A stretch of DNA of 64,000 bases from Minisyncoccota bacterium (GTDB taxonomy: Bacteria; Patescibacteriota; Minisyncoccia; Phycocordibacterales; GWA1-40-21), in contig JBAYKL010000003.1 of the NCBI GenBank assembly GCA_041664585.1, positions 49,074-113,073 on the forward strand, read 5' to 3'. A model generated the notes under the pieces. The model was given only the letters and a program-made list of their open reading frames with translations, ran no database searches and was not told the origin of the DNA. The translations under genes and the position numbers were made by a program. Shown here in pieces: positions 1,498 through 55,946 of this stretch (position 1 is the first letter of the stretch; each line of letters begins with the position of its first letter).

Positions 1498-3663
1498 ATG
1501 AAAAGAGATTATCCATTAGATAAAGTAAGAAATTTCGGAATCATTGCTCACATCGATGCTGGTAAGACAACTGTGTCTGAAAGAATTTTGTATTACACAG
1601 GTGTAAACCACAAGATTGGTGAGGTTCATGAAGGAGAAACAACTACAGACTGGATGGAACAGGAGAGAGAAAGAGGTATCACTATCTGTTCTGCTGCTGT
1701 TACATGTTTTTGGAATCCAACATATATGCCTAAGGAAGACTTAAGCAAAAAGGTTAGATTTAACATCATTGATACTCCTGGACACATCGACTTTACTGCA
1801 GAGGTTAAGCGTTCTTTAAGAGTGCTTGACGGTGCTGTCGTTGTATTTGATGGAGTTGCTGGTGTTGAACCACAATCAGAAACAAACTGGAGATATGCTG
1901 ATGAAGGTAAGGTTCCAAGACTTTGTTTTATAAACAAACTAGACAGAATGGGAGGATCTTTTGAAAGATCATACCAGTCTATTCTTGAAAGACTTACAAA
2001 AAATGCTGTAAGAATGCAACTTCCTATTGGTACAGAATCTGATTTTTCAGGAGTTGTTGATCTTATGAAGATGAAAGCATATTCTACAGAAGGTGCCATG
2101 GGAGAGACAATAACAGAATCAGAAATCCCAGCAGATATGTTAGAAGATGCAAAGAAATACAGAGCTGAGCTTGTAGAAAAGATTGTCGAAAATGATGAAA
2201 AACTCATGTCTGACTATCTCGAAGGAAAAGAAATTTCTCTTGAAGATTTGAAAAAGACTTTGAGAAAAGCAACTATCTCAAACGATATCGTTCCTGTATT
2301 TACTGGGTCTGCTTTGAAGAACAAAGGAGTTCAACTTATGCTTGATGGAGTTGTAGATTATCTACCATCTCCTCTTGATATTCCACCAGTCACAGGTATC
2401 GATCCAAGAACAGGAGCTGAAGTGCTAAGACATGCTTCTGATGAAGAACCTTTTACAGCTCTTGCTTTTAAATTACAAAACGACCCATTCGTAGGTCAGC
2501 TTACATATTTCAGAGTTTACTCTGGATCTATTAAAGCTGGTACATATCTTTATAACTCTACAACTGGAGAAAAAGAGAGACTAGGAAGAATCGTGAGAAT
2601 GCACGCAAATGACAGAGAAGATGTAGATGAGGTTATGGCTGGAGAAATTGCAGCTGCCGTCGGTCTTAAGGGTGCAAAGACTTCACACACTTTCTGTGAT
2701 GAAGCTAATCCAATATTACTTGATCAAATCGTATTCCCAGAACCAGTTATTACTTTGAGAATTGAACCAAAGACAAAAGCGGACCAAGAAAAAATGGGAT
2801 TTGCTTTGAAGAAACTTTCTGATGAAGATCCAACATTTAAAATCAAAACTGATTCAGAAACAGGAGAAACTGTTATGGCAGGTATGGGAGAGCTTCACCT
2901 TGAAATTCTTGTAGACAGAATGAAGAGAGAATTCGGAGTTGAAGCAAATGTCGGTAAACCACAGGTTGCTTATAAAGAAACAATTCTTGGTGAAGCTGAG
3001 AGAGAAGAGAAGTATGTTAAACAGTCTGGAGGTAAAGGCCAATACGGTCACGTTGTTATAAACATCAAACCTATGAAGCCTCTTGAGGAAGGAGCAAAAA
3101 TTCCTAAGAACGTAAAGAGAGATGACAACTTTGAATTCATCGATTCTATCAAGGGAGGTGCTATTCCACAAGAATTTATTCCTGCTGTTGAAAAAGGTGT
3201 TCGTGAAGCTATGGATAGGGGTATTCTTGCAGGATATAAACTTGTAAATGTATCTTGTGAACTTACATTCGGTTCATATCACGATGTTGACTCTTCTGAA
3301 ATTGCATATAAGATTGCCGCTTCTATGGCTTTCCAAGATGCAGCTAAGAGAGCAAAACCTGTTATCATGGAACCTATTATGAAAGTTGAAGTCGTTACAC
3401 CAGAGAAATTCATGGGAGATGTATCTGGAAGCGTCAACTCAAGAAGAGGTCAAATAACTGAGATGTTTGATAGAGGAATGAATAAAGTTATTCATGCTAA
3501 AGTACCTCTTTCTGAAATGTTCGGTTACGTTACAACTTTGAGGTCTATGTCAGAAGGAAGAGCTTCATCTACTATGGAATTCGACCACTACGATGTTGTT
3601 CCACCAAACGTTGCGAAAACTATTATTGAAGCTAGAGGAGCAGGTCCCGCAGCTTTGAAATAA
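1498..3663 (+). CDS. fusA: elongation factor G
   Basis: 721 aa; G-domain motifs [18 protein letters not shown]; classic position after rpsG. Confidence 0.95.
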
Positions 3664-7045: not shown

Positions 7046-8251
7046 ATGGCACAAGAATTTGAAAGATCAAAGCCACACGTAAACGTGGGTACCATTGGTC
7101 ACATTGACCACGGTAAGACAACATTGACTGCAGCTATTACTTACGTGCAGTCTCTTAAGGGTTTAGCAAATCACATCGCTTATGATCAGGTTGCGAAAGC
7201 GTCTGAAAAAGACGGTAGAAGAGATTCAACAAAAATCATCACTATCGCTATTTCTCACGTTGAGTACTCATCAGATGCAAGACACTATGCGCACGTCGAC
7301 TGTCCTGGACACGCTGACTACGTAAAGAACATGATTACTGGTGCTGCCCAAATGGACGGTGCTATCCTTGTTGTGTCAGCTGTTGATGGCCCTATGCCTC
7401 AGACAAAAGAACACGTTCTCTTAGCTCGCCAGGTTGGTGTGCCAAAGATCGTTGTCTTCTTAAACAAGTGTGACCTTGTTGATGATGCAGACCTATTGGA
7501 CCTAGTTGAAGTAGAAATCAGAGAGCTTTTGACTAAATACAACTTTGATGGAGATAATGCTCCTATCATAAGAGGTTCAGCTACAGGCGCTCTTGCTTGT
7601 AAGACAGCAGATGAACCAGGTGCAAAGTGTATAGCAGATCTTTTGACAGCATTAGATACATATATCCCTATGCCTGTTAGAGACGTAGATAAGCCATTCC
7701 TTATGCCAATCGAAGACATTTTCTCAATCGAAGGAAGAGGAACTGTTGTTACAGGTAGAATCGAAAGAGGAACTGTAAAAGTTGGTGAAGAAGTTGAAAT
7801 CGTTGGTATTAGACCAACAGCAAAATCAACAGTTACTGGTATTGAAATGTTTAATAAACAACTTCAAGACGGAAGAGCTGGAGATAACGCTGGTATCTTG
7901 CTTAGAGGTACAAAGAAAGAAGACGTCACAAGAGGTCAGGTTCTTTGTAAGACAGGTACAACAACTCCACATACAGAATTTGAGGCTGAAGTTTATATTT
8001 TGAAGAAAGAGGAAGGTGGTAGACACACTCCATTCTTCTCAGGTTATAAGCCACAATTCTACATCAGAACAACAGACGTTACTGGAGATGTTACATTAGC
8101 TCCAGGAGTTGAAATGGTTATGCCAGGAGATACAGTTACTTTCAAAGTTAAATTGGTAAACCCAGTTGCTCTTGAAGATAAGATGAGACTTGCTATCAGA
8201 GAAGGTGGTAAGACTGTAGGTTCTGGAGTTATCACAAAGATAGTTGCCTAA
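7046..8251 (+). CDS. tuf: elongation factor Tu
   Basis: 401 aa; [27 protein letters not shown] motifs; the switch-I region carries a short insertion relative to E. coli. Confidence 0.95.
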
Positions 8252-8397: not shown

Positions 8398-8697
8398 ATG
8401 CTAAGAATTAGAGTAAGAGCATATGATAGCAAAGTTCTTGACGCTTCAGTCAAACAGATTATTGAAACAGCCATGAGACACGATGTTAAAGTCGTTGGTC
8501 CTGTGCCTTTGCCAACAGAAATCAAGAAATATACTGTCAACAGAGCATCATTCGTCTACAAAAATGCGCGAGAACAATTTGAGATGAGGATACACAGAAG
8601 ATTGATAGATATTATTGGTCCTTCAGCTAAGGTAGTAGAGGCGCTCACAAACTTGAGCTTGCCTTCAGGTGTGAATATTGATGTGAAGATGGTTTAA
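8398..8697 (+). CDS. rpsJ: 30S ribosomal protein S10
   Basis: MLRIRVRAYD...GPVPLPT...RLIDI S10 signature. ATG at 8398 is preceded by AAGGAGGA 11 nt upstream. The in-frame ORF from 8311 adds a Lys-rich extension without a ribosome-binding site and is considered untranslated. Confidence 0.85.
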   Translation: MLRIRVRAYDSKVLDASVKQIIETAMRHDVKVVGPVPLPTEIKKYTVNRASFVYKNAREQFEMRIHRRLIDIIGPSAKVVEALTNLSLPSGVNIDVKMV

Positions 8698-8824
8698 GGA
8701 TTAAAATTAATAGACGCATCGCGATATTATCTTTGATAAGTACAAACATCTTCTTAATTTATTTAAGAAGGTGTTTGGCTTTTAGGGGTAATTGAAAAAC
8801 GCGCTCTGCATTAATAACGCTGAA

Positions 8825-9430
8825 ATGAAATTTATACTAGGAATAAAACAGAATATGACCCAGATCTTTGATGAGAAGGGAAATGTACAGCCTGCGACAA
8901 TATTGTCGGCTGGACCTCTTTTTGTAACTCAAATAAAAGACAAGAATATAGATGGGTATTCTGCCGTGCAAGTCGGTTTTGGTACTAAAAAAGAAAAGAA
9001 TATAAATAAGCCAGAAGCTGGGCACTTAAATGGTGTTAATGCTAGATTCTTGAAAGAATTTAGATTAGACGATACTTCTGCTTTTAAAGTTGGCGACAAA
9101 TTAGATTTATCTGTTTTGTCAGTTGGCGATTGCGTAGAAGTTTCTGGAATCACAAAAGGTAAAGGATATCAGAGTGTTATCAAAAGACATGGTTTCAAGG
9201 GTCAACCAAGAAGTCATGGTCAAAAGCACTGCGAAAATGCTCCAGGTTCTATCGGAGGAGGTCTTAGAAATAGAGTTCCAAAGAATATGAGAATGGCAGG
9301 CAGAATGGGTGCTGACAGAGTAACAATAAAGAACCTTAAAGTCCTTGGAGTCGACCAAGAGAATAATCAGATTTTAATAAGTGGTGCTATCCCTGGAAAG
9401 AGAGGTACTCTTATTGAAGTACGTGGTTAA
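8825..9430 (+). CDS. rplC: 50S ribosomal protein L3
   Basis: MKFILGIKQNMTQIF matches the L3 N-terminus (MKGLIGKKxGMTQ). The longer ORF from 8792 (TTG) is rejected. Confidence 0.85.
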   Translation: MKFILGIKQNMTQIFDEKGNVQPATILSAGPLFVTQIKDKNIDGYSAVQVGFGTKKEKNINKPEAGHLNGVNARFLKEFRLDDTSAFKVGDKLDLSVLSVGDCVEVSGITKGKGYQSVIKRHGFKGQPRSHGQKHCENAPGSIGGGLRNRVPKNMRMAGRMGADRVTIKNLKVLGVDQENNQILISGAIPGKRGTLIEVRG

Positions 9431-16750: not shown

Positions 16751-16790
16751 GGGGTTTGGGCATAGCCCAAACCCCGTCTTTGCTTTATCG
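16751..16790 (+). terminator. rho-independent terminator (first copy of a duplicated element)
   Basis: ggggtttggg-cata-gcccaaacccc hairpin followed by gtctttgcttt. Copy 2 at 21759 has a compensatory stem variant. Confidence 0.6.
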
Positions 16791-17290
16791 AAATGAACCA
16801 TGGTTCATTTCGGTATCTGTCTTTGCGAGCAAAGCGAAGCAAACCATCTCTGGATTGCTACGTCGGCAGACCTCCTAGCAAAGACAGGAAACCTGTTTCT
16901 TGTTTCTCTTAAGATCATATACTAAATACTTATACTGTATACTCACTAACGCTTATCCACACCCCCAAATCCATTGCATCCCACTCTCAAAAACTATGTA
17001 ATATACACATGTCACAGAAAATCTCTAAGTCTCTTTCTAAAATAAAGAAAATATCTATATACACAATATCTGCTTTCATTGTAGCTAAGCTCGTAGTATT
17101 TGCAGGCAATCTTATACCAGAAAGTACTCCAACCACTTCAACAATGGTTACGCTAGGTGATTTATATGAGAAAATCACAAATAACTCATATACCGCTTCT
17201 TCTCATCCAGTATCTACCACTACTTCACCAGCTTCTACATTCTCTACTCTAGAAAGCATATATAATGCTATACCTGACATATCTGGTAAT
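16751..17290 (+). repeat. copy 1 of an approximately 540-bp segmental duplication (terminator, 230-bp conserved leader, first about 90 codons of gene A)
   Basis: More than 90% identical to 21759-22297. Contains the perfect palindrome cgaaatgaacca|tggttcatttcg at 16789-16812. Confidence 0.85.
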
Positions 17291-17776
17291 GCGGCATCTA
17301 TCCTTTCAAATACCTCTATTATGGGAATACAGGGCACTCTTTCTATTCCTTCTGCTTCTCAGGTTGCTACAGGTACAGTATTTGGACCTAATGCTAATGG
17401 AGAAACTATTGGTACTCTTCCTGTCACCGCTCCTGTTCTTCCAGATACCATTAGTGCTTGGTCAGTAGCTAAGTCTACGGGTACTTGGGGTGGAGCTATT
17501 CTATTTTGTAATAATTTGGCAGAAGATGGTGCGAATTGGAGGTTGCCGAAAATAGCAGAACTAGCATTTGCTTTGGAAGAACAATTTAAAAGCAACCCTT
17601 CTTATGTAGATCATGATTTTGCATCGAACTCTGCTTATTGGTCAGGTGTTGAGTCCGATAATAATCCTACAAACGAGGCTTACTACGGTATTTATTATAC
17701 TGATATTAATTACAACCACGTGTACAGTTTTTCTGGCAGTAAGGGTCAAAGTTTTCTCATCCGCTGCGTCCACTAA
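17009..17776 (+). CDS. secreted/anchored DUF1566 (Lcl C-terminal domain)-like protein, paralog A1
   Basis: N-terminal hydrophobic anchor; Ser/Thr-rich linker; conserved W..A..FCNNL.E.G..WRLPK..EL ... YWSG ... RCVH motif block shared with 17788, 22016 and 22744. Confidence 0.6.
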   Translation: MSQKISKSLSKIKKISIYTISAFIVAKLVVFAGNLIPESTPTTSTMVTLGDLYEKITNNSYTASSHPVSTTTSPASTFSTLESIYNAIPDISGNAASILSNTSIMGIQGTLSIPSASQVATGTVFGPNANGETIGTLPVTAPVLPDTISAWSVAKSTGTWGGAILFCNNLAEDGANWRLPKIAELAFALEEQFKSNPSYVDHDFASNSAYWSGVESDNNPTNEAYYGIYYTDINYNHVYSFSGSKGQSFLIRCVH

Positions 17777-17787
17777 TTTTTATATCT

Positions 17788-18513
17788 ATGAAAAACAAAT
17801 TAAAATCATACATACCTAAAATACGCACAATATCTTTATATACGATATCTACTTTTATCGCAGCTAGACTTATAGCTTCAGCCGGTAACTTAGCTCCATC
17901 AGAAGCACCAGCCCCTACTATGGTGACCTTGGATCATTTGTTTAATAAAATTCAGGATAATTATTATTATTTTGGTGATGAACCAAAACTTTCTATTTCT
18001 ACATTATTATCTCCAGCAAACTCTATGCGTACATTGTTGGAAGTATATACTGCTATACCTAGTATCTCTCCAGATACTATTGCTACCGGTACTACTATTA
18101 TGGGCATACCGGGGAATGTGATTATACCGACGGCGAATACGGTGCAGTACGGAGTGCAGTTTGGGGATATGCCTTATAATTATCAAACAGGAACGATTAG
18201 CACGCCAACTAATATATGGTCAAATGCTTCAACAACAGCTAACTGGAATAACGCATTGGTTTTTTGTAATAATCTATCAGAAGGTGGACATGCTTGGAGG
18301 TTGCCGAAGGCGAACGAAATAGTTCAAGGTTTGTCAGAACCAGTTAATGGTTTCGGTCAATATGTGAATGTGTGGTCTGGTACAGATTATGGGGTAGACC
18401 CTTATGATGGCTATGACAAAGCTTTTTTAGGTTCAGTTTTTGCTAATTACACTGAAGCTTACAGCTGGACTGCTTATAAAAATTGGACATTTCATGTCCG
18501 TTGCACCAGATAG
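17788..18513 (+). CDS. secreted/anchored DUF1566-like protein, paralog B1 (Tyr/Asp-rich C-terminus)
   Basis: N-terminus MKNKLKSYIPKIRTISLYTISTFIAARL is 90% identical at DNA level to 22744. Motif LVFCNNLSEGGHAWRLPK. Confidence 0.6.
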   Translation: MKNKLKSYIPKIRTISLYTISTFIAARLIASAGNLAPSEAPAPTMVTLDHLFNKIQDNYYYFGDEPKLSISTLLSPANSMRTLLEVYTAIPSISPDTIATGTTIMGIPGNVIIPTANTVQYGVQFGDMPYNYQTGTISTPTNIWSNASTTANWNNALVFCNNLSEGGHAWRLPKANEIVQGLSEPVNGFGQYVNVWSGTDYGVDPYDGYDKAFLGSVFANYTEAYSWTAYKNWTFHVRCTR

Positions 18514-18647
18514 GGATTTTTTTACTAAGTCTACAACTAGATTCTGCTAGATAATTAAATAGCAAATTTTGTGTTTTTGTGTTATAAAAAGAATATCTAG
18601 AATAATGTATTTTGGATAGGGAGTTCTTTTCAAAAAAAGGGGATTTT

Positions 18648-18866
18648 ATGAGAAAAATAAGAAGTCACAGACTTATTGTAAGTGGTATCGTTTACCGTTG
18701 TGTCGTAATTTTTTTTACAACACTGTTCTTCTGGCTCGGGGTTAAACCACTGGTCGATTCGTGTGGCCCATTTGGCGCTGCAGTTATCTGGGGGATTATA
18801 AATACGCTTATTTACTACGCATATCACTTTCTCTTTGCTAAGATGTTCAAATTGGGCAAAGATTAG
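18648..18866 (+). CDS. small membrane protein, DUF2061-like, immediately upstream of cysD
   Basis: 72 aa; ribosome-binding site AAGGGG before the ATG; two TM helices; ends ...NTLIYYAYHFLFAKM, resembling the DUF2061 YY.HE motif. Confidence 0.35.
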   Translation: MRKIRSHRLIVSGIVYRCVVIFFTTLFFWLGVKPLVDSCGPFGAAVIWGIINTLIYYAYHFLFAKMFKLGKD

Positions 18867-18874
18867 GCTGGTAC

Positions 18875-18909
18875 GACGCGATTCTTGAAAAGAATCGCGT
18901 CTTTTTTTT
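18875..18909 (+). terminator. hairpin plus T tract between the small membrane-protein gene and cysD (possible attenuator)
   Basis: gacgcgattctt-gaaa-agaatcgcgtc followed by TTTTTTTT. Confidence 0.55.
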
Positions 18910-18924
18910 AATGGATTTTATGTT

Positions 18925-19830
18925 ATGCTTTATTTTATGATAAAGCTGAATCATCTAGAGGTGCTTGAATCCGAAAGCATACATATTATAAGGGAAGCTG
19001 TGGCCACTTTCAAAAATCCAGTGATGATGTATTCAATTGGTAAAGATTCCTCAGTGCTATTACATCTAATGAGAAAGGCGTTTGCTCCTACTAAGATACC
19101 TATACCATTACTTCATGTTGATACCGGATATAAATTTAAAGAAATGATTGATTTTAGGAATAATATTGCAAAAGAGCTTTCTCTTAATCTTATTGTTCGT
19201 AAAAATGAATCAGAGCAGGCAAAATCTTTTAAACCAGAAGAGGCCAATACAGACGAATATATATATCACAAAAAAACAAAGGCTCTTTTAGATGCAATTA
19301 AAGAATTTAATTTTGATGCTGCTTTTGGTGGTGGTAGACGCGACGAAGAAAAATCAAGAGCTAAAGAAAGGATTTTTTCTTTTAGGGATGTAAACAATGT
19401 CTGGAATCCTAAAAAACAGAGACCTGAGCTTTGGAATTTGTATAATACAAAAATAAAACAAGGGGAAACCATGAGGATTTTTCCACTATCAAATTGGACA
19501 GAGCTAGATATTTGGACTTATATAAAACAAGAAAATATTTCTATTGTGCCTTTGTATTTTGCACAAAAAAGAAAAATGCTAAAAAGAAATGGGGTGTTTA
19601 TAAGAGTAGACGAATTTAATATACCAAAAGAAGGGGAAGAGATATTTGAAGATTGGAGTAGATTCAGAACTCTGGGCTGTTCTCCTTCAACAGGTGCTAT
19701 TATTTCTAAAGCTGGTAATCTAGATGAAATTATTGAAGAAATACGTTTGACTCGTTTTTCTGAAAGACAGACAAGAGCAATAGACAACGGTTCAAGTATG
19801 GAAAGTAAAAAGAAACAGGGGTATTTTTAA
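18925..19830 (+). CDS. cysD: sulfate adenylyltransferase subunit 2 (CysD/NodP family)
   Basis: Near-collinear with E. coli CysD: [70 protein letters not shown]. Confidence 0.9.
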
Positions 19831-19841
19831 AAAAATATATT

Positions 19842-21095
19842 ATGGAAAATAAAGAATTTGTTATTGTTGCAACTTCGGGGAGTGTGGATGATGGAAAATC
19901 TACTCTACTAGGGCGTCTTTTGTATGATTGTGATTCTATTTATCAAGATGTTTTGAAAACTCTCAAGAAAGATTATGAATCAGAAGACGTGGTGGTAGAT
20001 AATCTCGCTTATGTTACAGACGGTCTGGAAGCTGAAAGGGAACAGGGTATTACTATTGATGTGGCTTACAAACATTTTTCTCGTACTCACAGAAAATTTT
20101 TGTTGGTAGATGTTCCTGGGCACGAGCAATATACAAGAAATATGATCACCGGAGTGTCTCGTGCAGATGCTGTGGTTATTATGATAGATATGAATTTGGG
20201 TGTTTCAATACAATCCAAGAGACATTTTTTCATTGCCTCAATGTTGGGGGTAAAAAATATTATTTTTGCATTGAACAAAATGGACCTTATGGGTTTTAAG
20301 CAAGAAATTTTTGAAAAAGTAAAAAGCGAATTGGAAGATTATTCTACAAAGCTTAATGTATCTAATTGTATTTTTATCCCTATGTCTGCTAAGTATGGAG
20401 ATATGGTAGTAGCCCGTGGAGAAAGAATGAATTGGTATGAGGGGCCAACACTACTCAGTGTTTTAGAAACATTTTCTTTTTCTGAAGATTTGGGCAGTGA
20501 AGATTTTAGGTTGCCAGTTCAGTGTGTATTAAATGATTCTAATTTTAGGGGTTATGCAGGTAAGGTTGAGGCTGGAGTATTAAATGTTGGCGATAAAGTC
20601 ACAATTGTGCCTTCTGGAAAAAAGACTAGTATAAAAGAGATATATATAGGTTTTGATAAAGTGGAGACGGCTTCAAAGGGCCAATCTATAGCAGTGTCTG
20701 TAAATGATAAACTAGATATTAGTCGCGGGGATATAATAATTGGGGCAGATAATTCTATAGTTCAGTCGAATAATTTGGATGTAATTTTGTTCTGGTTTGA
20801 TGAGAAGTCCTTAAAAGAGGGAAGAGATATTATTTTGAAAAATAACACTAAAGATGTTCGTGGTACCGTTCAGAATATTGAGTACTCTATTGATATGAAT
20901 ACCACACAAAAAATTGAAAAAGTAGGTATTTTGAATCAAAATGATGTGGGTAAGGCTAGTATAAAATTAAACTCTGACATATTTTTTGATACTTACGCAA
21001 AGAATAAAAATATGGGAAGTTTTATTCTGATAGACGATATTACTTATGATACTATTGGAGCGGGTATTATTTTAGGTAAAAAAGATGAAAAATAA
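19842..21095 (+). CDS. cysN: sulfate adenylyltransferase subunit 1, GTPase (CysN/NodQ N-terminal part)
   Basis: SGSVDDGKSTLLGRLL, DVPGHEQY, NKMD GTPase motifs; beta-barrel domains follow. Confidence 0.85.
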   Translation: MENKEFVIVATSGSVDDGKSTLLGRLLYDCDSIYQDVLKTLKKDYESEDVVVDNLAYVTDGLEAEREQGITIDVAYKHFSRTHRKFLLVDVPGHEQYTRNMITGVSRADAVVIMIDMNLGVSIQSKRHFFIASMLGVKNIIFALNKMDLMGFKQEIFEKVKSELEDYSTKLNVSNCIFIPMSAKYGDMVVARGERMNWYEGPTLLSVLETFSFSEDLGSEDFRLPVQCVLNDSNFRGYAGKVEAGVLNVGDKVTIVPSGKKTSIKEIYIGFDKVETASKGQSIAVSVNDKLDISRGDIIIGADNSIVQSNNLDVILFWFDEKSLKEGRDIILKNNTKDVRGTVQNIEYSIDMNTTQKIEKVGILNQNDVGKASIKLNSDIFFDTYAKNKNMGSFILIDDITYDTIGAGIILGKKDEK

Positions 21096-21648
21096 AATTA
21101 AAAAAAACAGCAAAAAAATTAAGAAAAAGAGTGGAGCAGTTCTTTGGCTCACTGGTCTTTCTGGTTCTGGCAAAAGCACGATAGGGGATTCTCTTCATGA
21201 AATTTTGAATAAAAAAGGTATTTCAGCACAAAGGCTCGATGGAGATATTTTAAGAGAGCATTTTGAAAATAAACTAGGTTTTAATAAAGAAGGCAGAGAT
21301 TTGAATATTAAAATATCTGCCTTTACTAGCTCTCTTTTAGAAAAACATGGGGTCATCGTCATTTCTTCTTTTATAAGTCCATATAAACACCAGAGAGATT
21401 TCGCGCGTAATCTTTCTAAAAAATTTATAGAGATACATGTAAATGCTTCTGTTGAGACATGTATCAAAAGGGATACAAAAGGACTCTATAAAAAAGCTCT
21501 CGCAGGAGAGATTAAAAATTTTACTGGTATTTCAGATCCGTATGAAGTTCCAGAAAATCCGCATCTTGTGATTGATACCGATATTTTGAATATCAAAGAT
21601 TCTGTAAAAAAAGTTTTAGATTATTTAACAAAAGAGGGGATAATCTAA
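21085..21648 (+). CDS. cysC: adenylyl-sulfate (APS) kinase
   Basis: VLWLTGLSGSGKSTIG P-loop and the LDGD motif of APS kinase; overlaps the cysN stop by 11 nt. Confidence 0.85.
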   Translation: MKNKIKKNSKKIKKKSGAVLWLTGLSGSGKSTIGDSLHEILNKKGISAQRLDGDILREHFENKLGFNKEGRDLNIKISAFTSSLLEKHGVIVISSFISPYKHQRDFARNLSKKFIEIHVNASVETCIKRDTKGLYKKALAGEIKNFTGISDPYEVPENPHLVIDTDILNIKDSVKKVLDYLTKEGII

Positions 21649-21758
21649 GAAGGGGTCGAGGTGAGACCTTGCCTGCCCGTCTTGCCTGCTTTAGGCTGGC
21701 TCAGGAGGGAATCTTCAAAAAGGTCTCTCCTCGACTACGAAAATTCTAAAAACACAGA

Positions 21759-21796
21759 GGGGTTTCGCTCCGCGAAACCCCGTCTTTGCTTTATCA
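21759..21796 (+). terminator. rho-independent terminator (second copy; stem differs from copy 1 by compensatory changes)
   Basis: ggggtttcgc-tcc-gcgaaacccc then gtctttgcttt. Confidence 0.6.
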
Positions 21797-22297
21797 AAAT
21801 GAACCATGGTTCATTTCGGTATCTGTCTTTGCGAGCAAAGCGAAGCAAACCATCTCTGGATTGCCACGTCGGCAGACCTCCTAGCAAAGACAGAAAACCT
21901 GTTTCTTGTTTTCTCTTAAGATCATATACTAAATACTTATATTGTATACTCACTAACACTTATCCACACCCCAAAATCCATTGCATCTCACTTTCAAAAA
22001 CTATATAATATACACATGTCACAGAAAATCTCTAAGTATTTTTCTAAAATAAAGAAAATATCCATATACACCATATCTACTTTCATTGTAGCTAAGCTTG
22101 TAGTATTTGCAGGTACTCTTATGCCAGACAGTACCCCAACCACATCAACAATGGTTACATTAGGTGACTTATATGAGAAAATTACAAATAATTCATACAC
22201 AACTTCTTCTCACCCAGTATCTACTACTACCTCACCAGCTTCTACATTTTCTACTCTGGAAAGCATATATGATGCTATACCGGATATAGCTAGGCAG
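21759..22297 (+). repeat. copy 2 of the approximately 540-bp segmental duplication
   Basis: More than 90% identical to 16751-17290; palindrome aaatgaaccatggttcattt at 21796-21815. Confidence 0.85.
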
Positions 22298-22732
22298 GCG
22301 AACTTGATAGATTCAACACATTCTCTTATGGGTGTACAAGGTGCTCTATACATTCCTACAATAAATCAAGTGGCTTCAGGTACACACTTTGGTCCCAATG
22401 GAAGTTTGGTAGGGACACTTTCTGCTGCTGCGGTGGCCTCGGATGAAATTAGTGCTTGGTCAGTAGCTAAATCTTCAGGTACATGGAGTGAAGCCATTCT
22501 GTTTTGTAATAATCTATCAGAAGGTGGACATGCTTGGAGGTTGCCGAAGAGGGCAGAGCTAGAGGGGCTAGTTAATAGTCCATTTTCATCATATACAATT
22601 TATTGGTCAGGTACAGAGGGTTTTATCAATCCCACTCATGCTTATGGCATCTATAGCTACGACTCAGGTTTTTCCGTCAATGCATATAATTATATGAAGA
22701 CGGACGTTCTTGGTGTTGGTTGCGTCCACTAA
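22016..22732 (+). CDS. DUF1566-like protein, paralog A2
   Basis: First 90 aa nearly identical to A1. C-terminal motif block includes a 48-nt stretch identical to B1 (ttttgtaataatctatcagaaggtggacatgcttggaggttgccgaag). Confidence 0.6.
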   Translation: MSQKISKYFSKIKKISIYTISTFIVAKLVVFAGTLMPDSTPTTSTMVTLGDLYEKITNNSYTTSSHPVSTTTSPASTFSTLESIYDAIPDIARQANLIDSTHSLMGVQGALYIPTINQVASGTHFGPNGSLVGTLSAAAVASDEISAWSVAKSSGTWSEAILFCNNLSEGGHAWRLPKRAELEGLVNSPFSSYTIYWSGTEGFINPTHAYGIYSYDSGFSVNAYNYMKTDVLGVGCVH

Positions 22733-22743
22733 TCTACACATCT

Positions 22744-23499
22744 ATGAAAAACAAATTAAAATCATACATACCTAAAATCCGCACAATATCTTTATATACG
22801 ATATCTACTTTTATCGCAGCTAGACTTATAGCTTCAGCTGGTAACCTAGCACCTACAGAAGCTCCAACTCCTACCATGGTAACATTGGACCATCTGTTTA
22901 ATAAAATTCAGAATAATACTTATTCTACAAGTACAGATGAAAAGTTGTCTATTTCAACACTACTATCTCCAGCAAACTCTATGCGCACCTTGCTGGAAGT
23001 ATATACTGCTATACCTAGTATTTCTCCAGATATTATTGCCACTGGTACCACTATTATGGGTATACCTGGGAATGTGGTGATGCCAGATGCAGCGAATGTT
23101 GCTAATGGGGTTGGATTTGGTCCTAGTAATTTTTATGACGATGGCTATGGTGGATTTTATTTTAGTGGTTATCCTTTTGTTGGTGAATTTAAAACATCTC
23201 ATCAGATATGGTCAAACGCTACAGGTAGCGGAAATTGGAATGATGCTATTTTGTTCTGTAATAATTTATCAGAAGGCGGGCATGCTTGGAGGTTGCCTAA
23301 GGATGGTGACTGGGGAGCCATGCACGAACCTTCTTTTCCAGGTAGATATTTTTGGTCTGGTACTGAAGTGAGTGCTGAATACGCTAGAGCATTCGGGATA
23401 TTTGATAGTGGCCAGGGATACTATTATGCTGCTCCATACTCAGATCAGTCGGATAAAGCTGCTGGCTACGGCGTTCGTTGTATAACTAAAACATTGTAA
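22744..23499 (+). CDS. DUF1566-like protein, paralog B2 (Tyr/Asp/Gly-rich C-terminus)
   Basis: ATG at 22744 gives MKNKLKSYIPKIRT..., matching the B1 start; the ORF-track start at 22720 is rejected. Motif ILFCNNLSEGGHAWRLPK. Confidence 0.6.
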   Translation: MKNKLKSYIPKIRTISLYTISTFIAARLIASAGNLAPTEAPTPTMVTLDHLFNKIQNNTYSTSTDEKLSISTLLSPANSMRTLLEVYTAIPSISPDIIATGTTIMGIPGNVVMPDAANVANGVGFGPSNFYDDGYGGFYFSGYPFVGEFKTSHQIWSNATGSGNWNDAILFCNNLSEGGHAWRLPKDGDWGAMHEPSFPGRYFWSGTEVSAEYARAFGIFDSGQGYYYAAPYSDQSDKAAGYGVRCITKTL

Positions 23500-23525
23500 T
23501 TTATTTTAAAATTTCGGATTTGCAA

Positions 23526-23552
23526 AAAAATCGCACGAGAGTGCGATTTTTA
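23526..23552 (+). terminator. rho-independent terminator
   Basis: aaaatcgcac-gaga-gtgcgatttt hairpin. Confidence 0.6.
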
Positions 23553-23579
23553 ATTAAGAATATTAACCCTGAAAGATTT

Positions 23580-24428
23580 TTATTCTAAAGTTGTATTTAA
23601 TTTTAATTCTCTTTTTGTCCAAAAGTTTAAATGCTCATATTTTTTTGCAGCAGCCTCTCCTATAAGTATGGGCCATTTTGGTAGTACCGGTGTAATTACA
23701 GCCCTTATCGTATGTAAGTCATCAAATCCGTGGTATTCATCTTTCTCAAATACGACTTGTTTTACATTATTGAAGTCATGTTTATATCTAGGAATCTCTA
23801 GAAAATCATATATTTTATTCATAACTTTTTCAGGACTATGAGTAAAAGATTCAAAGTCTACAAAAAGCATTTGCTTGGCATAGCCTTTGTGTACAGCATC
23901 ACGCATTTGATTGTATGCGCTACCCACAACTTCTTTTGAGTCCATAAATACTTCAAGTCTGCCTTCAATAGTATTAAATTTATCTGGGTTTCCCATTTCT
24001 TGTGGTATTGCTCTGTGTCCTGTATTTTTTCTCCACAAAGATTCAAAGCTGGCCAAGACTTCTCTGATATCTCTCACCGTTACAAGTAATTTAACAGGAT
24101 GACCAAGGATTTCTTCTGCCATTTCTATATTTCCACACCAACCACGAGATTTATCTACACAATATTTTTTGTCTGTATTTGAAAAGTAGCCCTCAAACAT
24201 CCCGCGCATTATTCTAATAGAAGACACTTTGTCATCTATGTGGTCGGAAGCTTTTATGGAAGGCATCTGACTCCACATGTTTTTTGTATTTCTCATAAGA
24301 CCTATAATGCTACTTGTAGGGGTGACATAGAAATCTGGGTTTTGAGATAGGACATTACAAAGTAGGGTGGAGCCAGAGCGGGGAAGTCCTGATAGGAAGA
24401 AGTATTCTCTTGTTTTTTTATCGTTCAT
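23580..24428 (-). CDS. PAPS-dependent sulfotransferase (Sulfotransfer_3 / Stf0-NodH-RaxST-like)
   Basis: 5'-PSB motif LPRSGSTLL near the N-terminus and a 3'-PB-like motif VTVRDIREVLAS; 282 aa. Confidence 0.65.
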   Translation of the reverse strand: MNDKKTREYFFLSGLPRSGSTLLCNVLSQNPDFYVTPTSSIIGLMRNTKNMWSQMPSIKASDHIDDKVSSIRIMRGMFEGYFSNTDKKYCVDKSRGWCGNIEMAEEILGHPVKLLVTVRDIREVLASFESLWRKNTGHRAIPQEMGNPDKFNTIEGRLEVFMDSKEVVGSAYNQMRDAVHKGYAKQMLFVDFESFTHSPEKVMNKIYDFLEIPRYKHDFNNVKQVVFEKDEYHGFDDLHTIRAVITPVLPKWPILIGEAAAKKYEHLNFWTKRELKLNTTLE

Positions 24429-24518
24429 TTTTAAGATAAATTATGTTTATAACAAATTAATCATAGCATTATGTAGGGGGAATATAAAGAGATAATTTAT
24501 CTTTTAATCAATAAATAC

Positions 24519-24558
24519 AAAAGGCCGGTTCGCGAAGCGAACCGGCCTTTTGTGTTTT
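24519..24558. terminator. bidirectional rho-independent terminator (end of the infC-rpmI-rplT operon)
   Basis: aaaaggccggttcgc-gaa-gcgaaccggcctttt with T/A tracts on both sides. Confidence 0.7.
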
Positions 24559-28156: not shown

Positions 28157-28177
28157 TTTATTCTATTTTTGTTCTAG

Positions 28178-28584
28178 TGGAGATGCCGAGAATCGAACTC
28201 GGGTGCAAATGATTGAACTCAATGCTTCTACAAAGTCTAGTTGATTTGTTTCCGTCCGAAGACGAATTTAGGTTTGTAAACTATAAAACAACAAAACATT
28301 TACAAACCGATTCTCTATTTTCGTCACTAGACGAGAAGGCTAGTGATATATTCTGAAAATATTGCACCTCATTCTACCTCTCAGAAGTCAGTAGATGAAA
28401 TGTAGCTTAGGCTAAAGCGTAAGCTAAAGTAAGGTCCTTGGCACCAAAAAATGGTGATACAATTCCCGCTACTTTTTGTGTAAAGCTTTTTGCATTTACA
28501 AGTCCTTGGTAGATTTAGGAGTTCACAAGGTTGCTCCACTTTGCGCAAGAGAGAACGGACCAATTGTCTAGGCCGATCATCCCC
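28178..28584 (-). ncRNA. ssrA: tmRNA (transfer-messenger RNA)
   Basis: Minus-strand 5' end GGGGAUGAUCGGCC. 3' end ...GCACCCGAGUUCGAUUCUCGGCAUCUCCA (T-arm GUUCGAUUC plus acceptor, CCA encoded). Internal tag ORF ...GAKDLTLAYALA-UAA. Immediately downstream of smpB. Confidence 0.85.
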
Positions 28585-31927: not shown

Positions 31928-31967
31928 TTTAATAACAGGGCTACGGAAGCTCTGTTTTTTTATGATG

Positions 31968-32041
31968 TACGCCTGCCTGGATTCGAACCAGGGACCCCCG
32001 AGGTATAAGCTCGATGCTCTAACCAGCTGAGCTACAGGCGT
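31968..32041 (-). tRNA. tRNA-Ile (anticodon UAU) candidate
   Basis: Reverse complement folds as acceptor ACGCCUG/CAGGCGU, D-arm GCUCAGCUGGUUAGAGC, anticodon stem UCGAG/CUCGG with loop CUUAUAC, T-arm CCUGGUUCGAAUCCAGG, discriminator A. Confidence 0.7.
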
Positions 32042-38686: not shown

Positions 38687-39220
38687 ATGGGTTTAATAGA
38701 AACAAAAGAAAAAGGTTTTACTCTGATAGAGCTTTTGGTAGTAATAGCTATAATTGCAATGCTGAGCTCTGTTGTTATGGCCGGTTTTAGTGATACTAAA
38801 CAGAAGGGTAGAGATGCTGCTAGAGTAAGGGCCTTACAGGAGGTGAGAAGCGCTTTGCAACTTTATGCTACTGATAAGGGAGGGTTTCCTCCGGGTACCA
38901 ATATATTAGGATCTTCTAATTTATTAACTGAACTTGCGGTAAACAATAAATACATAGCGTCTGTTGATTCTAGTCTAAGATATAGCGGAGTAAATTCCGA
39001 TGGAACTTATTGTAATCCGTCAGTATATACAGTGTGCTCTGGGTACCATATTGGAATAGCCCTAGAAAGAAGAGACAGTGGTGTTTTAGTGAATGACAGT
39101 AACTCAATTCTGCCAACTGGTAGTGGTCCAGGCACAGCGGTGATAGGAACAAATGATACTTGTGGGCCTGCTGGTGTAGTCGGAGGCACCCCAGTATTGT
39201 GCTATGATATTTTACAGTAA
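38687..39220 (+). CDS. type IV pilin-like protein (class III signal KG|FTLIELLVVIAII)
   Basis: Prepilin cleavage motif G|FTLIEL with Glu at +5; hydrophobic N-terminal helix; C-terminal Cys pair. Confidence 0.8.
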   Translation: MGLIETKEKGFTLIELLVVIAIIAMLSSVVMAGFSDTKQKGRDAARVRALQEVRSALQLYATDKGGFPPGTNILGSSNLLTELAVNNKYIASVDSSLRYSGVNSDGTYCNPSVYTVCSGYHIGIALERRDSGVLVNDSNSILPTGSGPGTAVIGTNDTCGPAGVVGGTPVLCYDILQ

Positions 39221-39224
39221 TTTC

Positions 39225-39782
39225 ATGTTTTATAATAAAAGAAAGAATGGTTTTACTCTAATAGAGCTTTTAGTTGTTATATCTATAATCGGCCTACTCT
39301 CCACAGTCATCTTGGCTAGTCTAACGAGCGCAAGGAAAAAGGCTCAAGCTACAAAATTTGTTGCTGATATGAATCAACTCAAAACAGCTTTTGAATTGTA
39401 TAGGAATGACAATGGTCAGTATCCTTTTGAAGATAGACAAATAGGTACTGAAGCCGACGAGATATCACATCTCTCTTTGACAACCAATTTACCGGGCGCT
39501 AGTGGGAAGGGTCTTAATGATGAATTAGTCACGAATAAATACATAAGTTCTATTCCTAATATTTCTCAGTGTCCAACTGTATGTGATTTGAGAGTCACAG
39601 TAACTCCAGAGGATTATGGTTATATTACAAAAAAAGAATTACTCGGTGGTACCGATACCTCTTATCATTGTGGTGGTGTTATTTTTAAAAATTATTTATT
39701 TTATGTCGGTAATAATCAGATAAGTCCGAATTATCCGCACCTTGGTGGGGGCTACGACAATTATTATTGTTTTGGTCAGTAA
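39225..39782 (+). CDS. type IV pilin-like protein (paralog of 40826 and 41378)
   Basis: MFYNKRKNG|FTLIELLVVISIIGLL; start at 39225 chosen over 39204 because it lies after the upstream stop; ends ...YYCFGQ. Confidence 0.8.
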   Translation: MFYNKRKNGFTLIELLVVISIIGLLSTVILASLTSARKKAQATKFVADMNQLKTAFELYRNDNGQYPFEDRQIGTEADEISHLSLTTNLPGASGKGLNDELVTNKYISSIPNISQCPTVCDLRVTVTPEDYGYITKKELLGGTDTSYHCGGVIFKNYLFYVGNNQISPNYPHLGGGYDNYYCFGQ

Positions 39783-39821
39783 TATGTTTAGTTTTCCAAA
39801 AATTAGTTTATAATACATTGT

Positions 39822-40475
39822 ATGTCCGTAGAGTTCGACCAGAAAAATATGTTTTTGAAAAAAAGTAAAGGTTTCACCCTCATAGAACTTCTAGTGGTTA
39901 TTTCAATAATTGGTTTGTTATCTACTGTAGTCATGGCTGGTATGCAAACCGCTAGGCAAAGAGCAAAGAATTCTTATGTAACTGCTTCAATAAAATCTTA
40001 CATAACTGCATTAAAGGGTTATTATGCAGATCATGGAGGGTACCCAGCTAATTATGGAGACGGTTGTGAGTGGGCGGCATATTATTATATTGGATTAGGA
40101 AAAACAGACTATCAAGCATTAGGGGGACATTTTTGCTCGTATATTGATTCGAATTACTTTTTAGACCAACTTTCGCCGTACCTTTCTTCTCTGGATGATC
40201 CTAGTCCGTATGAGAATCCAAAGCCTTATAATGATATCCATAACGTTATCTATTGGAACAGGAAGGGCGCAGGATTTGTTTGCGAAGATAAACAAACAAA
40301 CCTTTACTGTTCTAAGGGTAAAATTGTTTGGGTTATTGATACAACTATAGATAAAAATGTTAATTGTGGGGATGTGGGTGGTGGAAGTAATTCTATGCCG
40401 GCTGAAGATTTACAAAATATTTTTGGTATGGATTTGAAAAATTACGTTTATCACTACTGTTATTTAAATATTTAG
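39822..40475 (+). CDS. type IV pilin-like protein with a long leader (MSVEFDQKNMFLKKSKG|FTLIEL)
   Basis: Prepilin motif. The N-terminal MSVEFDQKN is conserved at protein level with gene 40491, so the 39822 start is probably used; the alternative start is 39849. Confidence 0.7.
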   Translation: MSVEFDQKNMFLKKSKGFTLIELLVVISIIGLLSTVVMAGMQTARQRAKNSYVTASIKSYITALKGYYADHGGYPANYGDGCEWAAYYYIGLGKTDYQALGGHFCSYIDSNYFLDQLSPYLSSLDDPSPYENPKPYNDIHNVIYWNRKGAGFVCEDKQTNLYCSKGKIVWVIDTTIDKNVNCGDVGGGSNSMPAEDLQNIFGMDLKNYVYHYCYLNI

Positions 40476-40490
40476 TGATATAATAATTTT

Positions 40491-40826
40491 ATGTCTATCG
40501 AATTTGATCAAGAAAATAGTTTTAATAAAACTTTTAGCAAAGCCTATTCAAAAAGTGGTGATTCTAAGATAGTCGCATATCTTATTAAAAAGAGGTTTGC
40601 CAAGAATGAAAAACAAGCAAATATGATTTTGCTTGGTATTGCTGTCTTGTGTATTTTATTAACTCTTTCTATTATTAAAACTACAGTCTATCCTGCATCG
40701 GCACCAGTATCACAAAGGACTCGAGAGATTTCTCAAACGATGTCAGAGTACAGAAAAGCCGGTTTACCGTTATCAGAAATAAGAAAAAGGATTGCTGAGG
40801 ATATTCAGTCTGGAAAGATAAAGTAA
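40491..40826 (+). CDS. small membrane protein sharing the MS(V/I)EFDQ(K/E)N N-terminus with the upstream pilin
   Basis: 111 aa, one TM helix, no G|F cleavage motif. Confidence 0.5.
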   Translation: MSIEFDQENSFNKTFSKAYSKSGDSKIVAYLIKKRFAKNEKQANMILLGIAVLCILLTLSIIKTTVYPASAPVSQRTREISQTMSEYRKAGLPLSEIRKRIAEDIQSGKIK

Positions 40827-41371
40827 TGTTTAAGGTAAAGGTAAAAAATAATAGAGGTTTCACCCTCATCGAGCTTTTAGTTGTTATATCTATAATCGGT
40901 CTACTATCCACAGTCGTCTCGGCTAGTCTAACGAGTGCAAGAAAAAAAGCTGAAGCTGCAAAATTTCTTGCAGAAATGGATCAGTTCAAAAAGGCTTTAG
41001 AATTATACAGAACTGATAATGGAATATATCCAGGAGAGCCTGATTATATGGCCTGTTGGATGGGCCCAGGCTCGGTTTGTTCTAAGAACGTTGCTACCTA
41101 TTTAAAAGAAGAATTGGTGGATAAAAAGTACATCCCGGCATTACCACAAGTGAGTAGGTTTGATGATTCGGAATATTATGCTGGGATAACTAACTTGGAT
41201 TTTATGGACTCAGGTGTAAATTATAAAACAGTTTGTGGTGGTAGGTATCTAAAATCATACATGGTTGATTTTTATTATGAAAATATTCCAACTCAAGATT
41301 TTCCTAAATTTTCATATATTATAAATGGGATAGAGTGGCCAATGGGTGACAGGTATTGTTTAGGAGAATAA
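40826..41371 (+). CDS. type IV pilin-like protein
   Basis: RG|FTLIELLVVISIIGLLSTVVSASLTSARKKAEAAKF; ends ...RYCLGE. Confidence 0.8.
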   Translation: MFKVKVKNNRGFTLIELLVVISIIGLLSTVVSASLTSARKKAEAAKFLAEMDQFKKALELYRTDNGIYPGEPDYMACWMGPGSVCSKNVATYLKEELVDKKYIPALPQVSRFDDSEYYAGITNLDFMDSGVNYKTVCGGRYLKSYMVDFYYENIPTQDFPKFSYIINGIEWPMGDRYCLGE

Positions 41372-41377
41372 TTATTT

Positions 41378-41920
41378 ATGAAAACAAAAAGACAAAAAGG
41401 TTTTACATTGATAGAGTTACTGGTTGTTATTTCAATAATAGGTTTATTGTCTACGGTCGTTTTGGCTAGTCTAACGAGTGCAAGAAAAAAAGCTGAAGCT
41501 GCAAAATTTGTTGCGGAGATGAAACAATTAAAAACAGCTTTTGAATTGTATAGGAATGACAACGGAGGTTATCCTGGCGGATTAAATTTTGATAGTTGTT
41601 ATCCTTTATCTGGATCTTGCCAAGATGCAAAAATATTTTTAATAAATGAATTAGTTAATAAAAAATATATTCAGTCCGTACCCCAAATAGACAATTTTAA
41701 TGAATTTTATTATTCGGCCGGTGCAACTCTGGATCAGACTATTGGGCAAACAAGATGGCAGCAAATTTGCGGAGGCAGGGCTTTAAAAGCATGGGGACTT
41801 TTCTTTGTATATCCAAATATACCAATAAACGATTTTGATGTTTGGGAAGCTTATGTTTATGAAAATGGACAATATCAAGGCTCAAATACCTTCGATGGTT
41901 TTTATTGTATTGGGGAGTAG
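41378..41920 (+). CDS. type IV pilin-like protein
   Basis: KG|FTLIELLVVISIIGLLSTVVLASLTSARKKAEAAKF; ends ...FYCIGE; 5' 170 nt about 85-90% identical to 39225 and 40826. Confidence 0.8.
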   Translation: MKTKRQKGFTLIELLVVISIIGLLSTVVLASLTSARKKAEAAKFVAEMKQLKTAFELYRNDNGGYPGGLNFDSCYPLSGSCQDAKIFLINELVNKKYIQSVPQIDNFNEFYYSAGATLDQTIGQTRWQQICGGRALKAWGLFFVYPNIPINDFDVWEAYVYENGQYQGSNTFDGFYCIGE

Positions 41921-50150: not shown

Positions 50151-50561
50151 ATGAATAAAAAAGGTTTTACATTGATTGAGCTTTTGGTGGTTATCGCCAT
50201 CATTGGTATTCTATCTTCAGTCGTTCTTGCTTCATTGAATTCAGCTAGATCAAAAGGATCAAATGCTGCTATAAAGTCTAGTTTGGCTAACATGAGAGCA
50301 CAGGCAGAAATGTATTATGACGGTACAGGTGCAGGAACATATGGTGCATCTAATGCTTTGTGTACAGATGCTGCTTCTGGTATAAAAAATATGGTTGATT
50401 CAGTTAAAGGAATGTCAACTGCTGTTACATGTACTAGCGACGCTAGCTCATGGGCTGTGTCTGCTTTGTTGAAAGATGCAACAACATGGTGTGTTGATTA
50501 CACTGGCAAATCTGCAACAACAACAGGTATCGCTTCCTCAACTCCGTTTAAATGTAGCTAA
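50151..50561 (+). CDS. pilA: major type IV pilin candidate (short, own promoter and terminator)
   Basis: MNKKG|FTLIELLVVIAIIGIL; 136 aa; C-terminal Cys pair C...C; strong extended -10 (tgtataat) promoter upstream and terminator downstream. Confidence 0.75.
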   Translation: MNKKGFTLIELLVVIAIIGILSSVVLASLNSARSKGSNAAIKSSLANMRAQAEMYYDGTGAGTYGASNALCTDAASGIKNMVDSVKGMSTAVTCTSDASSWAVSALLKDATTWCVDYTGKSATTTGIASSTPFKCS

Positions 50562-50595
50562 ACTTTATTAAGACTTCTTAATAATTAAAAAGAAA

Positions 50596-50625
50596 AAACT
50601 CGCAATCGCGAGTTTTTTCTTTTTT
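50596..50625 (+). terminator. rho-independent terminator after pilA
   Basis: aaaaaactcgc-aat-cgcgagtttttt. Confidence 0.7.
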
Positions 50626-50647
50626 ATAAAATGATATAATATTAAGC

Positions 50648-52132: not shown

Positions 52133-52172
52133 TTATTAGTAAGGTTTAATTTATTAATTTTAATATTTAAGT

Positions 52173-53234: not shown

Positions 53235-53257
53235 TTTATATCTTTAATTATAAGAAA

Positions 53258-53290
53258 ACAAAACCCCACTAAAATGGGGTTTTGTTTTTG
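53258..53290 (+). terminator. rho-independent terminator
   Basis: aaaaccccac-taaaa-tggggtttt plus T tract. Confidence 0.65.
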
Positions 53291-53314
53291 ATTTAAAAAT
53301 TATATAATATGTAT

Positions 53315-55943: not shown

Positions 55944-55946
55944 TAT

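Follow-up and report, generated by a model that had tools for sequence, protein, structure and literature searches.

The 64,000-nt stretch of DNA analysed here (the window: positions 49,074 to 113,073 of GenBank contig JBAYKL010000003.1) comes from a Minisyncoccota bacterium, a member of the candidate phyla radiation (CPR). It carries three genes for the synthesis of 3'-phosphoadenosine 5'-phosphosulfate (PAPS), cysD, cysN and cysC (together cysDNC, 18925-21648), and, about 1.9 kb away and on the opposite strand, a gene for a PAPS-dependent sulfotransferase (ST). Two cassettes of small secreted proteins of the Lcl_C/DUF1566 family, each with an A-type and a B-type member, lie on either side of the cys genes (Table 1). 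Hidden Markov model (HMM) searches found all of these genes where they had been placed by a reading of the letters alone, referred to here as the sequence-only reading. The GC content of the window is about 35%, and its other genes include ribosomal and translation genes, a transfer-messenger RNA (tmRNA) and a complete type IV pilus locus.

Table 1. Features of the cys-sulfotransferase locus and of the pilin cluster, in window coordinates (TM, transmembrane; ORF, open reading frame)
Feature	Position	Strand	Basis and remarks
Leader of cassette 1	16779..17008	+	starts directly 3' of the terminator of the upstream gene
A1, predicted secreted or N-terminally anchored protein with C-terminal Lcl_C	17009..17776	+	PF07603, 36.5 bits (cutoff 34.9)
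B1, A1 paralogue	17788..18513	+	starts 11 nt downstream of A1; PF07603, 21.9 bits (sub-threshold)
Putative 72-aa membrane protein, two TM helices, DUF2061-like	18648..18866	+	ATG at 18648, Shine-Dalgarno-like AAGGGG, then terminator
Intrinsic-terminator-like hairpin	18875..18901	+	12-bp stem followed by T8; 24 nt 5' of cysD; follows the small ORF
cysD, sulfate adenylyltransferase small subunit	18925..19830	+	PRK05253, 435 bits; TIGR02039, 430 bits (cutoff 397; NCBIfam)
cysN, sulfate adenylyltransferase GTPase subunit	19842..21095	+	TIGR02034, 461 bits (cutoff 336); no fused kinase
cysC, adenosine 5'-phosphosulfate (APS) kinase making PAPS	21085..21648	+	TIGR00455, 204 bits (cutoff 139); APS_kinase, 186 bits
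GC-rich, strongly structured 83-nt hairpin	21654..21736	+	directly 3' of cysC
Leader of cassette 2	21785..22015	+	preceded by a terminator at 21759-21781 (also 3' of cysC); promoter-like site 21916-21943
A2, A1 paralogue	22016..22732	+	68% identical to A1 overall; PF07603, 31.7 bits (sub-threshold)
B2, B1 paralogue	22744..23499	+	16-residue insert containing NFYDDGYGG; PF07603, 18.4 bits (sub-threshold)
PAPS-dependent sulfotransferase (ST), 282 aa	23580..24428	-	Sulfotransfer_1, 57.6 bits (cutoff 22); Sulfotransfer_3, 57.8 bits (cutoff 27)
Strong bidirectional terminator	24514..24556	.	20-bp stem; between rplT and the ST gene
Type IV pilin paralogue cluster	38687..41920	+	five pilin genes and a 111-aa partner ORF; pilin motif scan

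The cys genes are closely packed, with an 11-nt overlap between cysN and cysC. In both metagenome and protein searches their nearest CysD and CysN relatives came from low-GC contigs, and those that were named belonged to Paceibacterota or Patescibacteria. The close relatives (L092, L093, L094, L131, L132 and the P0275 contig; CysD 65-83% or CysN 65-84% identity) were all of low GC and had cysC wherever the contig reached far enough; cysH was seen in none of them, whereas nine of the high-GC loci at about 55% identity had the order cysD-cysN-cysH, with PAPS reductase confirmed in two of the nine (226 and 236 bits). The 64-kb window holds no PAPS_reduct paralogue besides CysD, and no sulfite reductase, sulfate permease or ABC exporter was present among its scanned ORFs of at least 200 aa, in agreement with the sequence-only reading, which had likewise noted neither reductase in the window. 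The neighbours of cysDNC in the relatives were informative. The cassette adjoins a Sulfotransfer_1 gene in L094; in L132 (CysN 70% identity) cysC forms an operon with a Sulfotransfer_3-like gene; L093 has a Capsule_synth-like gene and a GT2 glycosyltransferase, with an Rrf2 regulator and a TauE transporter downstream; and the neighbours in L131, which is a further Paceibacterota contig of the same sample, are four glycosyltransferases and an ABC ATPase. As the close relatives keep cysC, show no cysH and adjoin sulfotransferases or glycosyltransferases, the earlier view that these genes form a sulfation module rather than part of sulfur assimilation is supported, and the comparisons support cysDNC as a lineage-specific PAPS cassette whose product would be used as a sulfuryl donor. 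In L132, a stand-alone Peptidase_C39 gene (8480-8983) was also noted directly 3' of cysD-cysN, the 72-aa protein, cysC and Sulfotransfer_3-like genes being divergent from cysD-cysN-Peptidase_C39; C39 peptidases process exported peptides in RaxB-type systems.

The small ORF that precedes the cassette looks like a real gene, because it has an ATG, a Shine-Dalgarno-like site and a terminator and is conserved beside cys genes in relatives. Its homologue in L132 is 72% identical and lies upstream of cysC and the ST gene, that in L131 is 51% identical and lies just after cysC, and the P0275 contig has an 84-aa gene at the matching position. The sequence-only reading had called the ORF (18612-18866) a DUF2061 protein. 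This is plausible by analogy with the CysN homologue P0325, in which PF09834 (DUF2061) is fused to CysN, but the window ORF itself gave no match to PF09834 or to any other Pfam family (hmmscan, E <= 1).

The ST was correctly assigned to the Sulfotransfer_3 type from its sequence, and the alignments support a genuine PAPS-type enzyme. Its 5'-phosphosulfate-binding (5'-PSB) loop, GLPRSGSTLL at residues 14-23, aligns to GVPRSGTTL of the tyrosylprotein sulfotransferase TPST1, and its 3'-phosphate-binding (3'-PB) motif, VRDxRDVLAS, to VRDGRASVHS. Across 25 homologues G14, P16, R17, S18, G19, S20, T21 and L22 are invariant in the former and L23 nearly so; in the latter V118, R119, D120 and S127 are invariant. 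An AlphaFold2 (AF2) model was confident (predicted local distance difference test, pLDDT, 94), and the closest solved structures are TPSTs. The equivalents of TPST Arg78 and Lys158 are kept as R17 and K93 in the profile alignment, yet the catalytic Glu99 of TPST2, which lies 21 residues after the 5'-PSB Arg, aligns with high confidence to an invariant threonine, Thr38. By the model and alignment the ST is TPST-like in fold without being an orthodox TPST. The protein has no signal peptide and no membrane segment and therefore would act in the cytoplasm.

The ST family is large (869 matches at E <= 1e-3, the few with source names being CPR taxa), and homologues at 27-47% identity occur in Proteobacteria, Actinobacteria, Cyanobacteria, Planctomycetes and Verrucomicrobia. 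Gene neighbourhoods were sampled in 80 GTDB loci (L004-L083) by scoring any ORF that is 800 aa or longer and lies no more than 1.5 kb from the ST gene. Such an ORF stood beside the ST homologue in 60 of the 80 genomes, against 13% of size-matched control ORFs from the same loci, usually 30-180 nt downstream and on the same strand. The large neighbours examined as examples with Pfam were adhesin-like: giants of 2072-2530 aa with DUF4347 and Big_12/13 Ig-like repeats, smaller or contig-truncated DUF4347 proteins, ESPR or ESPR plus autotransporter proteins and, in a Paceibacteria genome, a 1267-aa protein with a carbohydrate-binding module (CBM) and a 1139-aa YadA-head/Peptidase_S74 protein. The order in a Pseudomonas locus (L043) is HlyD/OEP genes, PMT_2 (a GT-C glycosyltransferase), ST and a 2675-aa ORF, a giant by its size; several other loci have an ORF of similar size to PMT_2 directly upstream of ST. 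Massilia loci show an AIRS-family gene, CysC, ST and a giant ORF. A neighbour of the ST in Rhodoferax (L016:10226-12079) fuses an Asp/Asn beta-hydroxylase domain to a second Sulfotransfer_3 domain, and L021 has a 617-aa ORF at the matching position; this fusion hints at a two-step protein modification.

Closer homologues, at 54-61% identity, adjoin a type IV pilin-like gene in four loci, with a gap of 65 nt in L084 and of 5-13 nt in the other three; a further homologue, at 65% identity, was found on a 1.2-kb contig. The pilins linked to ST in L133, L087, L084 and L089 are 38-61% identical by blastp to pilins of the window, and their membrane partner of about 105 aa belongs to the same family as the 111-aa ORF at 40491-40826. 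The window has nine pilin-like genes (38687-41920 and 50151-56537) together with PilM, PilB, PilT, PilC and a prepilin peptidase, the machinery lying at 42.6-54.6 kb. Because the window pilins at 39204-41920 are of the same family as the pilins that share operons with ST in its closest relatives, those of the 38687-41920 cluster are candidate clients of the enzyme. The ST family is therefore associated with secreted surface proteins in general. This family-wide association is indirect, and it is the strongest support for a link between the window ST and its secreted neighbours. In the library searched, neither sulfotransferases of CPR bacteria nor an association of ST with adhesins or pilins was the subject of any paper found.

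Within the window the genes are not arranged as a single operon. Separate promoter-like sites and terminators and the convergent orientation of the ST gene, which ends 81 nt from the B2 stop codon and has its own promoter-like site at 24488-24460, divide the island into at least four transcription units. Each A-B cassette is headed by a leader of about 230 nt, and the two leaders (16779-17008 and 21785-22015) are 95.7% identical; the first 137 nt of the repeat, from 16769 and from 21775 in its copy, are 98% identical. In the first leader a palindromic hairpin lies at 16786-16815 and a promoter-like site at 16909-16936, and the fold z-score is -4.1. Both contain a perfect palindrome (AAATGAACCATGGTTCATTT) and a long-range stem, and both are more conserved than the coding regions downstream. 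Such near-identity suggests a shared regulatory element or gene conversion; further copies of the leader were absent from the fetched sequence. The hairpin that follows cysC is also strongly structured (minimum free energy -63 kcal/mol for 21649-21790; z-score -5.1), with no Rfam match and no second copy in the fetched sequence. Rfam searches of 16.5-24.7 kb in gathering and E-value modes gave no riboswitch and no small RNA, the only matches being sub-threshold and on the 24514-24556 terminator.

The description of the cassettes as recently duplicated proved half right. The duplication is real and the 5' ends are near-identical, but synonymous divergence (dS), at 0.26-0.38 over the first 50 codons, increases until it is saturated in the last third, and there are indels in the 3' parts; the N-terminal half of A2 is conserved with A1 and the C-terminal third has diverged. 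Because near-identical 5' ends are joined to saturated 3' parts with indels, the data fit old paralogues with homogenised promoters, leaders and 5' halves better than a simple recent duplication. The family assignment made from the letters held: all four proteins match PF07603, with A1 above the cutoff and A2, B1 and B2 below it. A word-index search for A/B relatives returned self matches only, and the relatives described here come from an exhaustive HMM search (3205 at E <= 1e-3), many of them proteins of 200-400 aa that match the N-terminal module. When 11 short relatives were aligned, the full architecture was found to be common, and all four window proteins aligned over the W...C..L...WRLP...YWS...VRCV motifs. 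This architecture runs from an N-terminal signal or anchor through two (T/S)xxTLxxIY motifs and a Gly-rich linker to an Lcl_C domain, whose last residues are VRCVR. An AF2 model of A1, built from an alignment of four sequences, had a pLDDT of 33, so that the fold assignment of the A/B proteins comes from their sequences.

One relative, P0139, is the target of a diversity-generating retroelement (DGR): its gene is followed downstream by bAvd, a template repeat and a reverse transcriptase. The locus L130 (also L129) holds a textbook DGR (191-2875), with the target Lcl_C gene at 191-949, bAvd at 1029-1517 and the reverse transcriptase at 1736-2875; its variable region (808-957, the last 150 nt of the gene) differs from the template repeat (1556-1705) exclusively at template adenines. 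Given that the family is DGR-diversified in relatives, a role as variable adhesins or ligand binders is probable for the A/B proteins. Among the known classes of DGR target are the DUF1566 proteins (PMC5758913). A local DGR acting on the cassettes was considered and rejected, as the window contains no reverse transcriptase, Avd or template repeat; one may act in trans from elsewhere in the genome. As to partnership with the sulfation genes, no A/B homologue lay beside cysDNC or ST in the 130 fetched loci apart from contigs of the same species, and the idea that the A/B proteins are conserved partners of either was rejected on that ground. As surface proteins encoded beside ST they match the family-wide pattern, but they are not conserved partners.

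We propose, with fair though incomplete confidence, that the locus is a dedicated sulfation module for a surface component, with the adjacent A-B cassettes loosely coupled to it. CysD and CysN would make APS and CysC would convert it to PAPS, the 72-aa membrane protein accompanying these genes. With no PAPS reductase linked to cysDNC, PAPS would be the end product and the sulfuryl donor, to be used by the stand-alone cytoplasmic ST encoded 2 kb away. The ST would then sulfate a cell-surface component before or during its export, either a secreted protein or a glycan destined for one, as the family adjoins giant adhesin genes and lies in CPR pilin operons. The two cassettes would supply small secreted proteins of C-type-lectin fold (Lcl_C) with hypervariable C-terminal binding sites, which are candidate clients by position only. 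A surface-linked acceptor, protein or its glycan, is most likely. Between the two, the glycan route is somewhat more compatible with a cytoplasmic ST and glycosyltransferase neighbours, and any modification of the A/B proteins or the pilins is an inference.

Several observations weigh against this proposal. The ST gene is monocistronic and convergent with B2 rather than an operon partner of it. No cysDNC genes were found within 10 kb of ST homologues on other CPR contigs. The giant-adhesin sample consists of homologues at 27-47% identity, many from related genera, and the same gyrB and CARDB flanks recur in three of the four pilin-ST loci, leaving about two independent contexts. The replacement of Glu99 by Thr38 may mean that both chemistry and acceptor differ from those of TPST. 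Neither a sulfate transporter nor a PAP phosphatase was found in the window, and the absence of cysH is a local result, covering 64 kb of a 292-kb contig and the contigs of relatives.

One alternative is that the ST is a RaxST/TPST-type enzyme that sulfates tyrosines in acidic patches of the B-type (and A-type) proteins before Sec export. The patches noticed in the sequence-only reading do exist: NFYDDGYGG and PYSDQSDKAAGY in B2 and DPYDGYDKA in B1. Their reading as sulfation marks is not supported. With a site defined as a Tyr with at least three Asp/Glu within 5 residues and at most one basic residue, there are 49 sites in 74 window proteins (7% of tyrosines), including EF-G, EF-Tu and CysN. 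B1 stands above this background with four sites among its 16 tyrosines, but A2 has one and A1 and B2 have none, and among the giant partner proteins examined the majority show none in 2000-3300 residues; the patches are not clearly enriched. Moreover, DPYDGYDKA and PYSDQSDKAAGY fall inside the segment homologous to the DGR variable region, where AAY-codon diversification is expected to give a composition heavy in Tyr, Asp, Ser, Gly and Asn, which explains these two patches; NFYDDGYGG lies in the B2-specific insert. The TPST-like fold, the conserved 5'-PSB Arg and K93, the adjacency of the family to secreted proteins and the protein-modifying beta-hydroxylase fused to an ST domain in Rhodoferax would all suit a tyrosine sulfotransferase; the invariant Thr in place of the catalytic Glu, the lack of A/B genes beside cysDNC and ST in all relatives sampled, the separate transcription of A/B and ST and the want of a RaxB-type ABC exporter in the window would not. 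We give this explanation a low probability, and sulfation of tyrosines in the flanking proteins appears unlikely. The broader expectation that sulfation is coupled to the flanking surface proteins survives in that the ST family is tied to secreted surface proteins, and falls short in that the A/B genes do not neighbour cysDNC in relatives.

Another possibility, less probable than our proposal but to be taken seriously, is that the acceptor of the ST is a carbohydrate, such as a lipid-linked sugar or a glycan of the envelope or capsule, which might later be transferred to pilins or adhesins, and that the A/B genes are unrelated neighbours. The glycosyltransferase cluster of L131 and the Capsule_synth-like and GT2 genes of L093 beside cysDNC agree with this, as does L043, where the PMT_2 gene is immediately upstream of ST and a putative giant adhesin gene downstream. 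A cytoplasmic ST, moreover, cannot reach the exported domains of co-translationally inserted pilins. Archaeal archaellins carry sulfated glycans (PMC6591318). However, there is no glycosyltransferase within the island, and the pilin-ST operons of the relatives have none adjacent, the nearest one called starting about 7-8 kb upstream. Ordinary assimilatory sulfate activation, with cysH elsewhere in the genome and the ST an unrelated accessory gene, is very improbable: cysDNC are standard assimilation genes and the 64 kb examined belong to a contig of at least 292 kb, but cysH was seen neither here nor in the close relatives, whereas distant relatives have it directly after cysN, and the close relatives are repeatedly tied to sulfotransferases and glycosyltransferases. 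CPR bacteria generally lack amino-acid biosynthesis, which also speaks against assimilation.

The sulfation module that we favour resembles known systems in part. As with NodP/NodQ and NodH, a PAPS supply is linked to a PAPS-dependent ST without a PAPS reductase in the cluster, and the NodPQ/NodH product, sulfated and exported, mediates cell-cell or host interaction. The island differs in having no glycosyltransferase or Nod genes, in its separate CysN and CysC proteins accompanied by a conserved 72-aa membrane protein, in an ST whose best fold matches, among the structures compared, are TPSTs and in its host, a CPR bacterium in which an assimilatory pathway may be missing altogether. The Xanthomonas system of RaxP/RaxQ and RaxST-RaxX-RaxA/RaxB (PMC4646787) likewise combines PAPS synthesis with a TPST-like (PF13469-type) cytoplasmic ST, and members of the ST family stand beside secreted proteins as RaxST does, the HlyD-type and OEP genes of one Pseudomonas locus recalling the raxA/raxB layout. 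In contrast, neither a small RaxX-like peptide nor a peptidase-ABC exporter is encoded in the window, the ST lacks the TPST catalytic Glu, and the ST neighbours are pilins, giant adhesins and C-type-lectin-fold proteins rather than a hormone-mimic peptide. The animal enzymes TPST1 and TPST2 match the ST profile at E = 4e-10 and share its 5'-PSB and 3'-PB motifs and the Lys158 equivalent, but the sequences are 17-21% identical, Thr38 stands in place of Glu99 and the C-terminal 70 residues are unrelated; TPST is a type II membrane protein of the Golgi whereas the ST is soluble and predicted to be cytoplasmic.

The A/B proteins resemble the DUF1566/CLec2 DGR proteins, such as Legionella LdtA (PMC5758913), in having an Lcl_C domain that ends in VRC(V/T)(R/H), and a relative of full architecture is a verified DGR target; unlike such targets, the paralogues differ from one another by indels and saturated synonymous change and not by adenine-specific substitution. 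Lcl_C is a C-type-lectin-like fold for ligand binding, and Legionella Lcl binds sulfated glycosaminoglycans (PMC11162425). We considered whether the A/B proteins bind sulfated glycans in the same way and rejected this, as L. pneumophila Lcl uses a basic surface whereas the mature A/B proteins are acidic (pI 4.5-4.9; A1 4.5); they also have no lipobox and no collagen repeats.

Some other features of the window were noted. A 993-aa ORF (3775-6756, +) lies between fusA (EF-G, 1498-3663) and tuf (EF-Tu, 7046-8251) and has no significant Pfam domain, its sole weak match being to GtrII-type glucosyltransferases (E = 0.05). ARAGORN called a tRNA-Ile with anticodon TAT (UAU) at 31967-32041 (-), an uncommon bacterial way of reading AUA, and there are two tRNA genes with anticodon CAT at 61624-61855. 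The tmRNA (28177-28584, -) has a long predicted tag peptide (AKSFTQKVAGIVSPFFGAKDLTLAYALA), and smpB is apparently just upstream of it, as judged from a PF01668 call in the equivalent contig L001.

A bolder form of our proposal, which we regard as rather doubtful, is that the ST family represents an unrecognised bacterial protein sulfotransferase that acts in the cytoplasm on adhesins, pilins and small lectin-fold binders still to be exported and that is fed, in this bacterium, by a private PAPS cassette. Adhesin-glycosylating enzymes encoded beside their autotransporter clients offer a parallel to such a role. If it were true, the host-attachment apparatus of a CPR bacterium, its type IV pili and/or its variable Lcl_C proteins, would carry sulfate groups. 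CPR bacteria live attached to host cells with almost no biosynthesis, and the keeping of three PAPS genes, apparently without a reduction pathway, suggests that a sulfated surface product matters to the CPR lifestyle. A large adhesin-like gene adjoins ST in three quarters of the genomes sampled, with culturable Pseudomonas, Massilia and Dyella among them, and this adjacency points to an unstudied modification of bacterial surface proteins.

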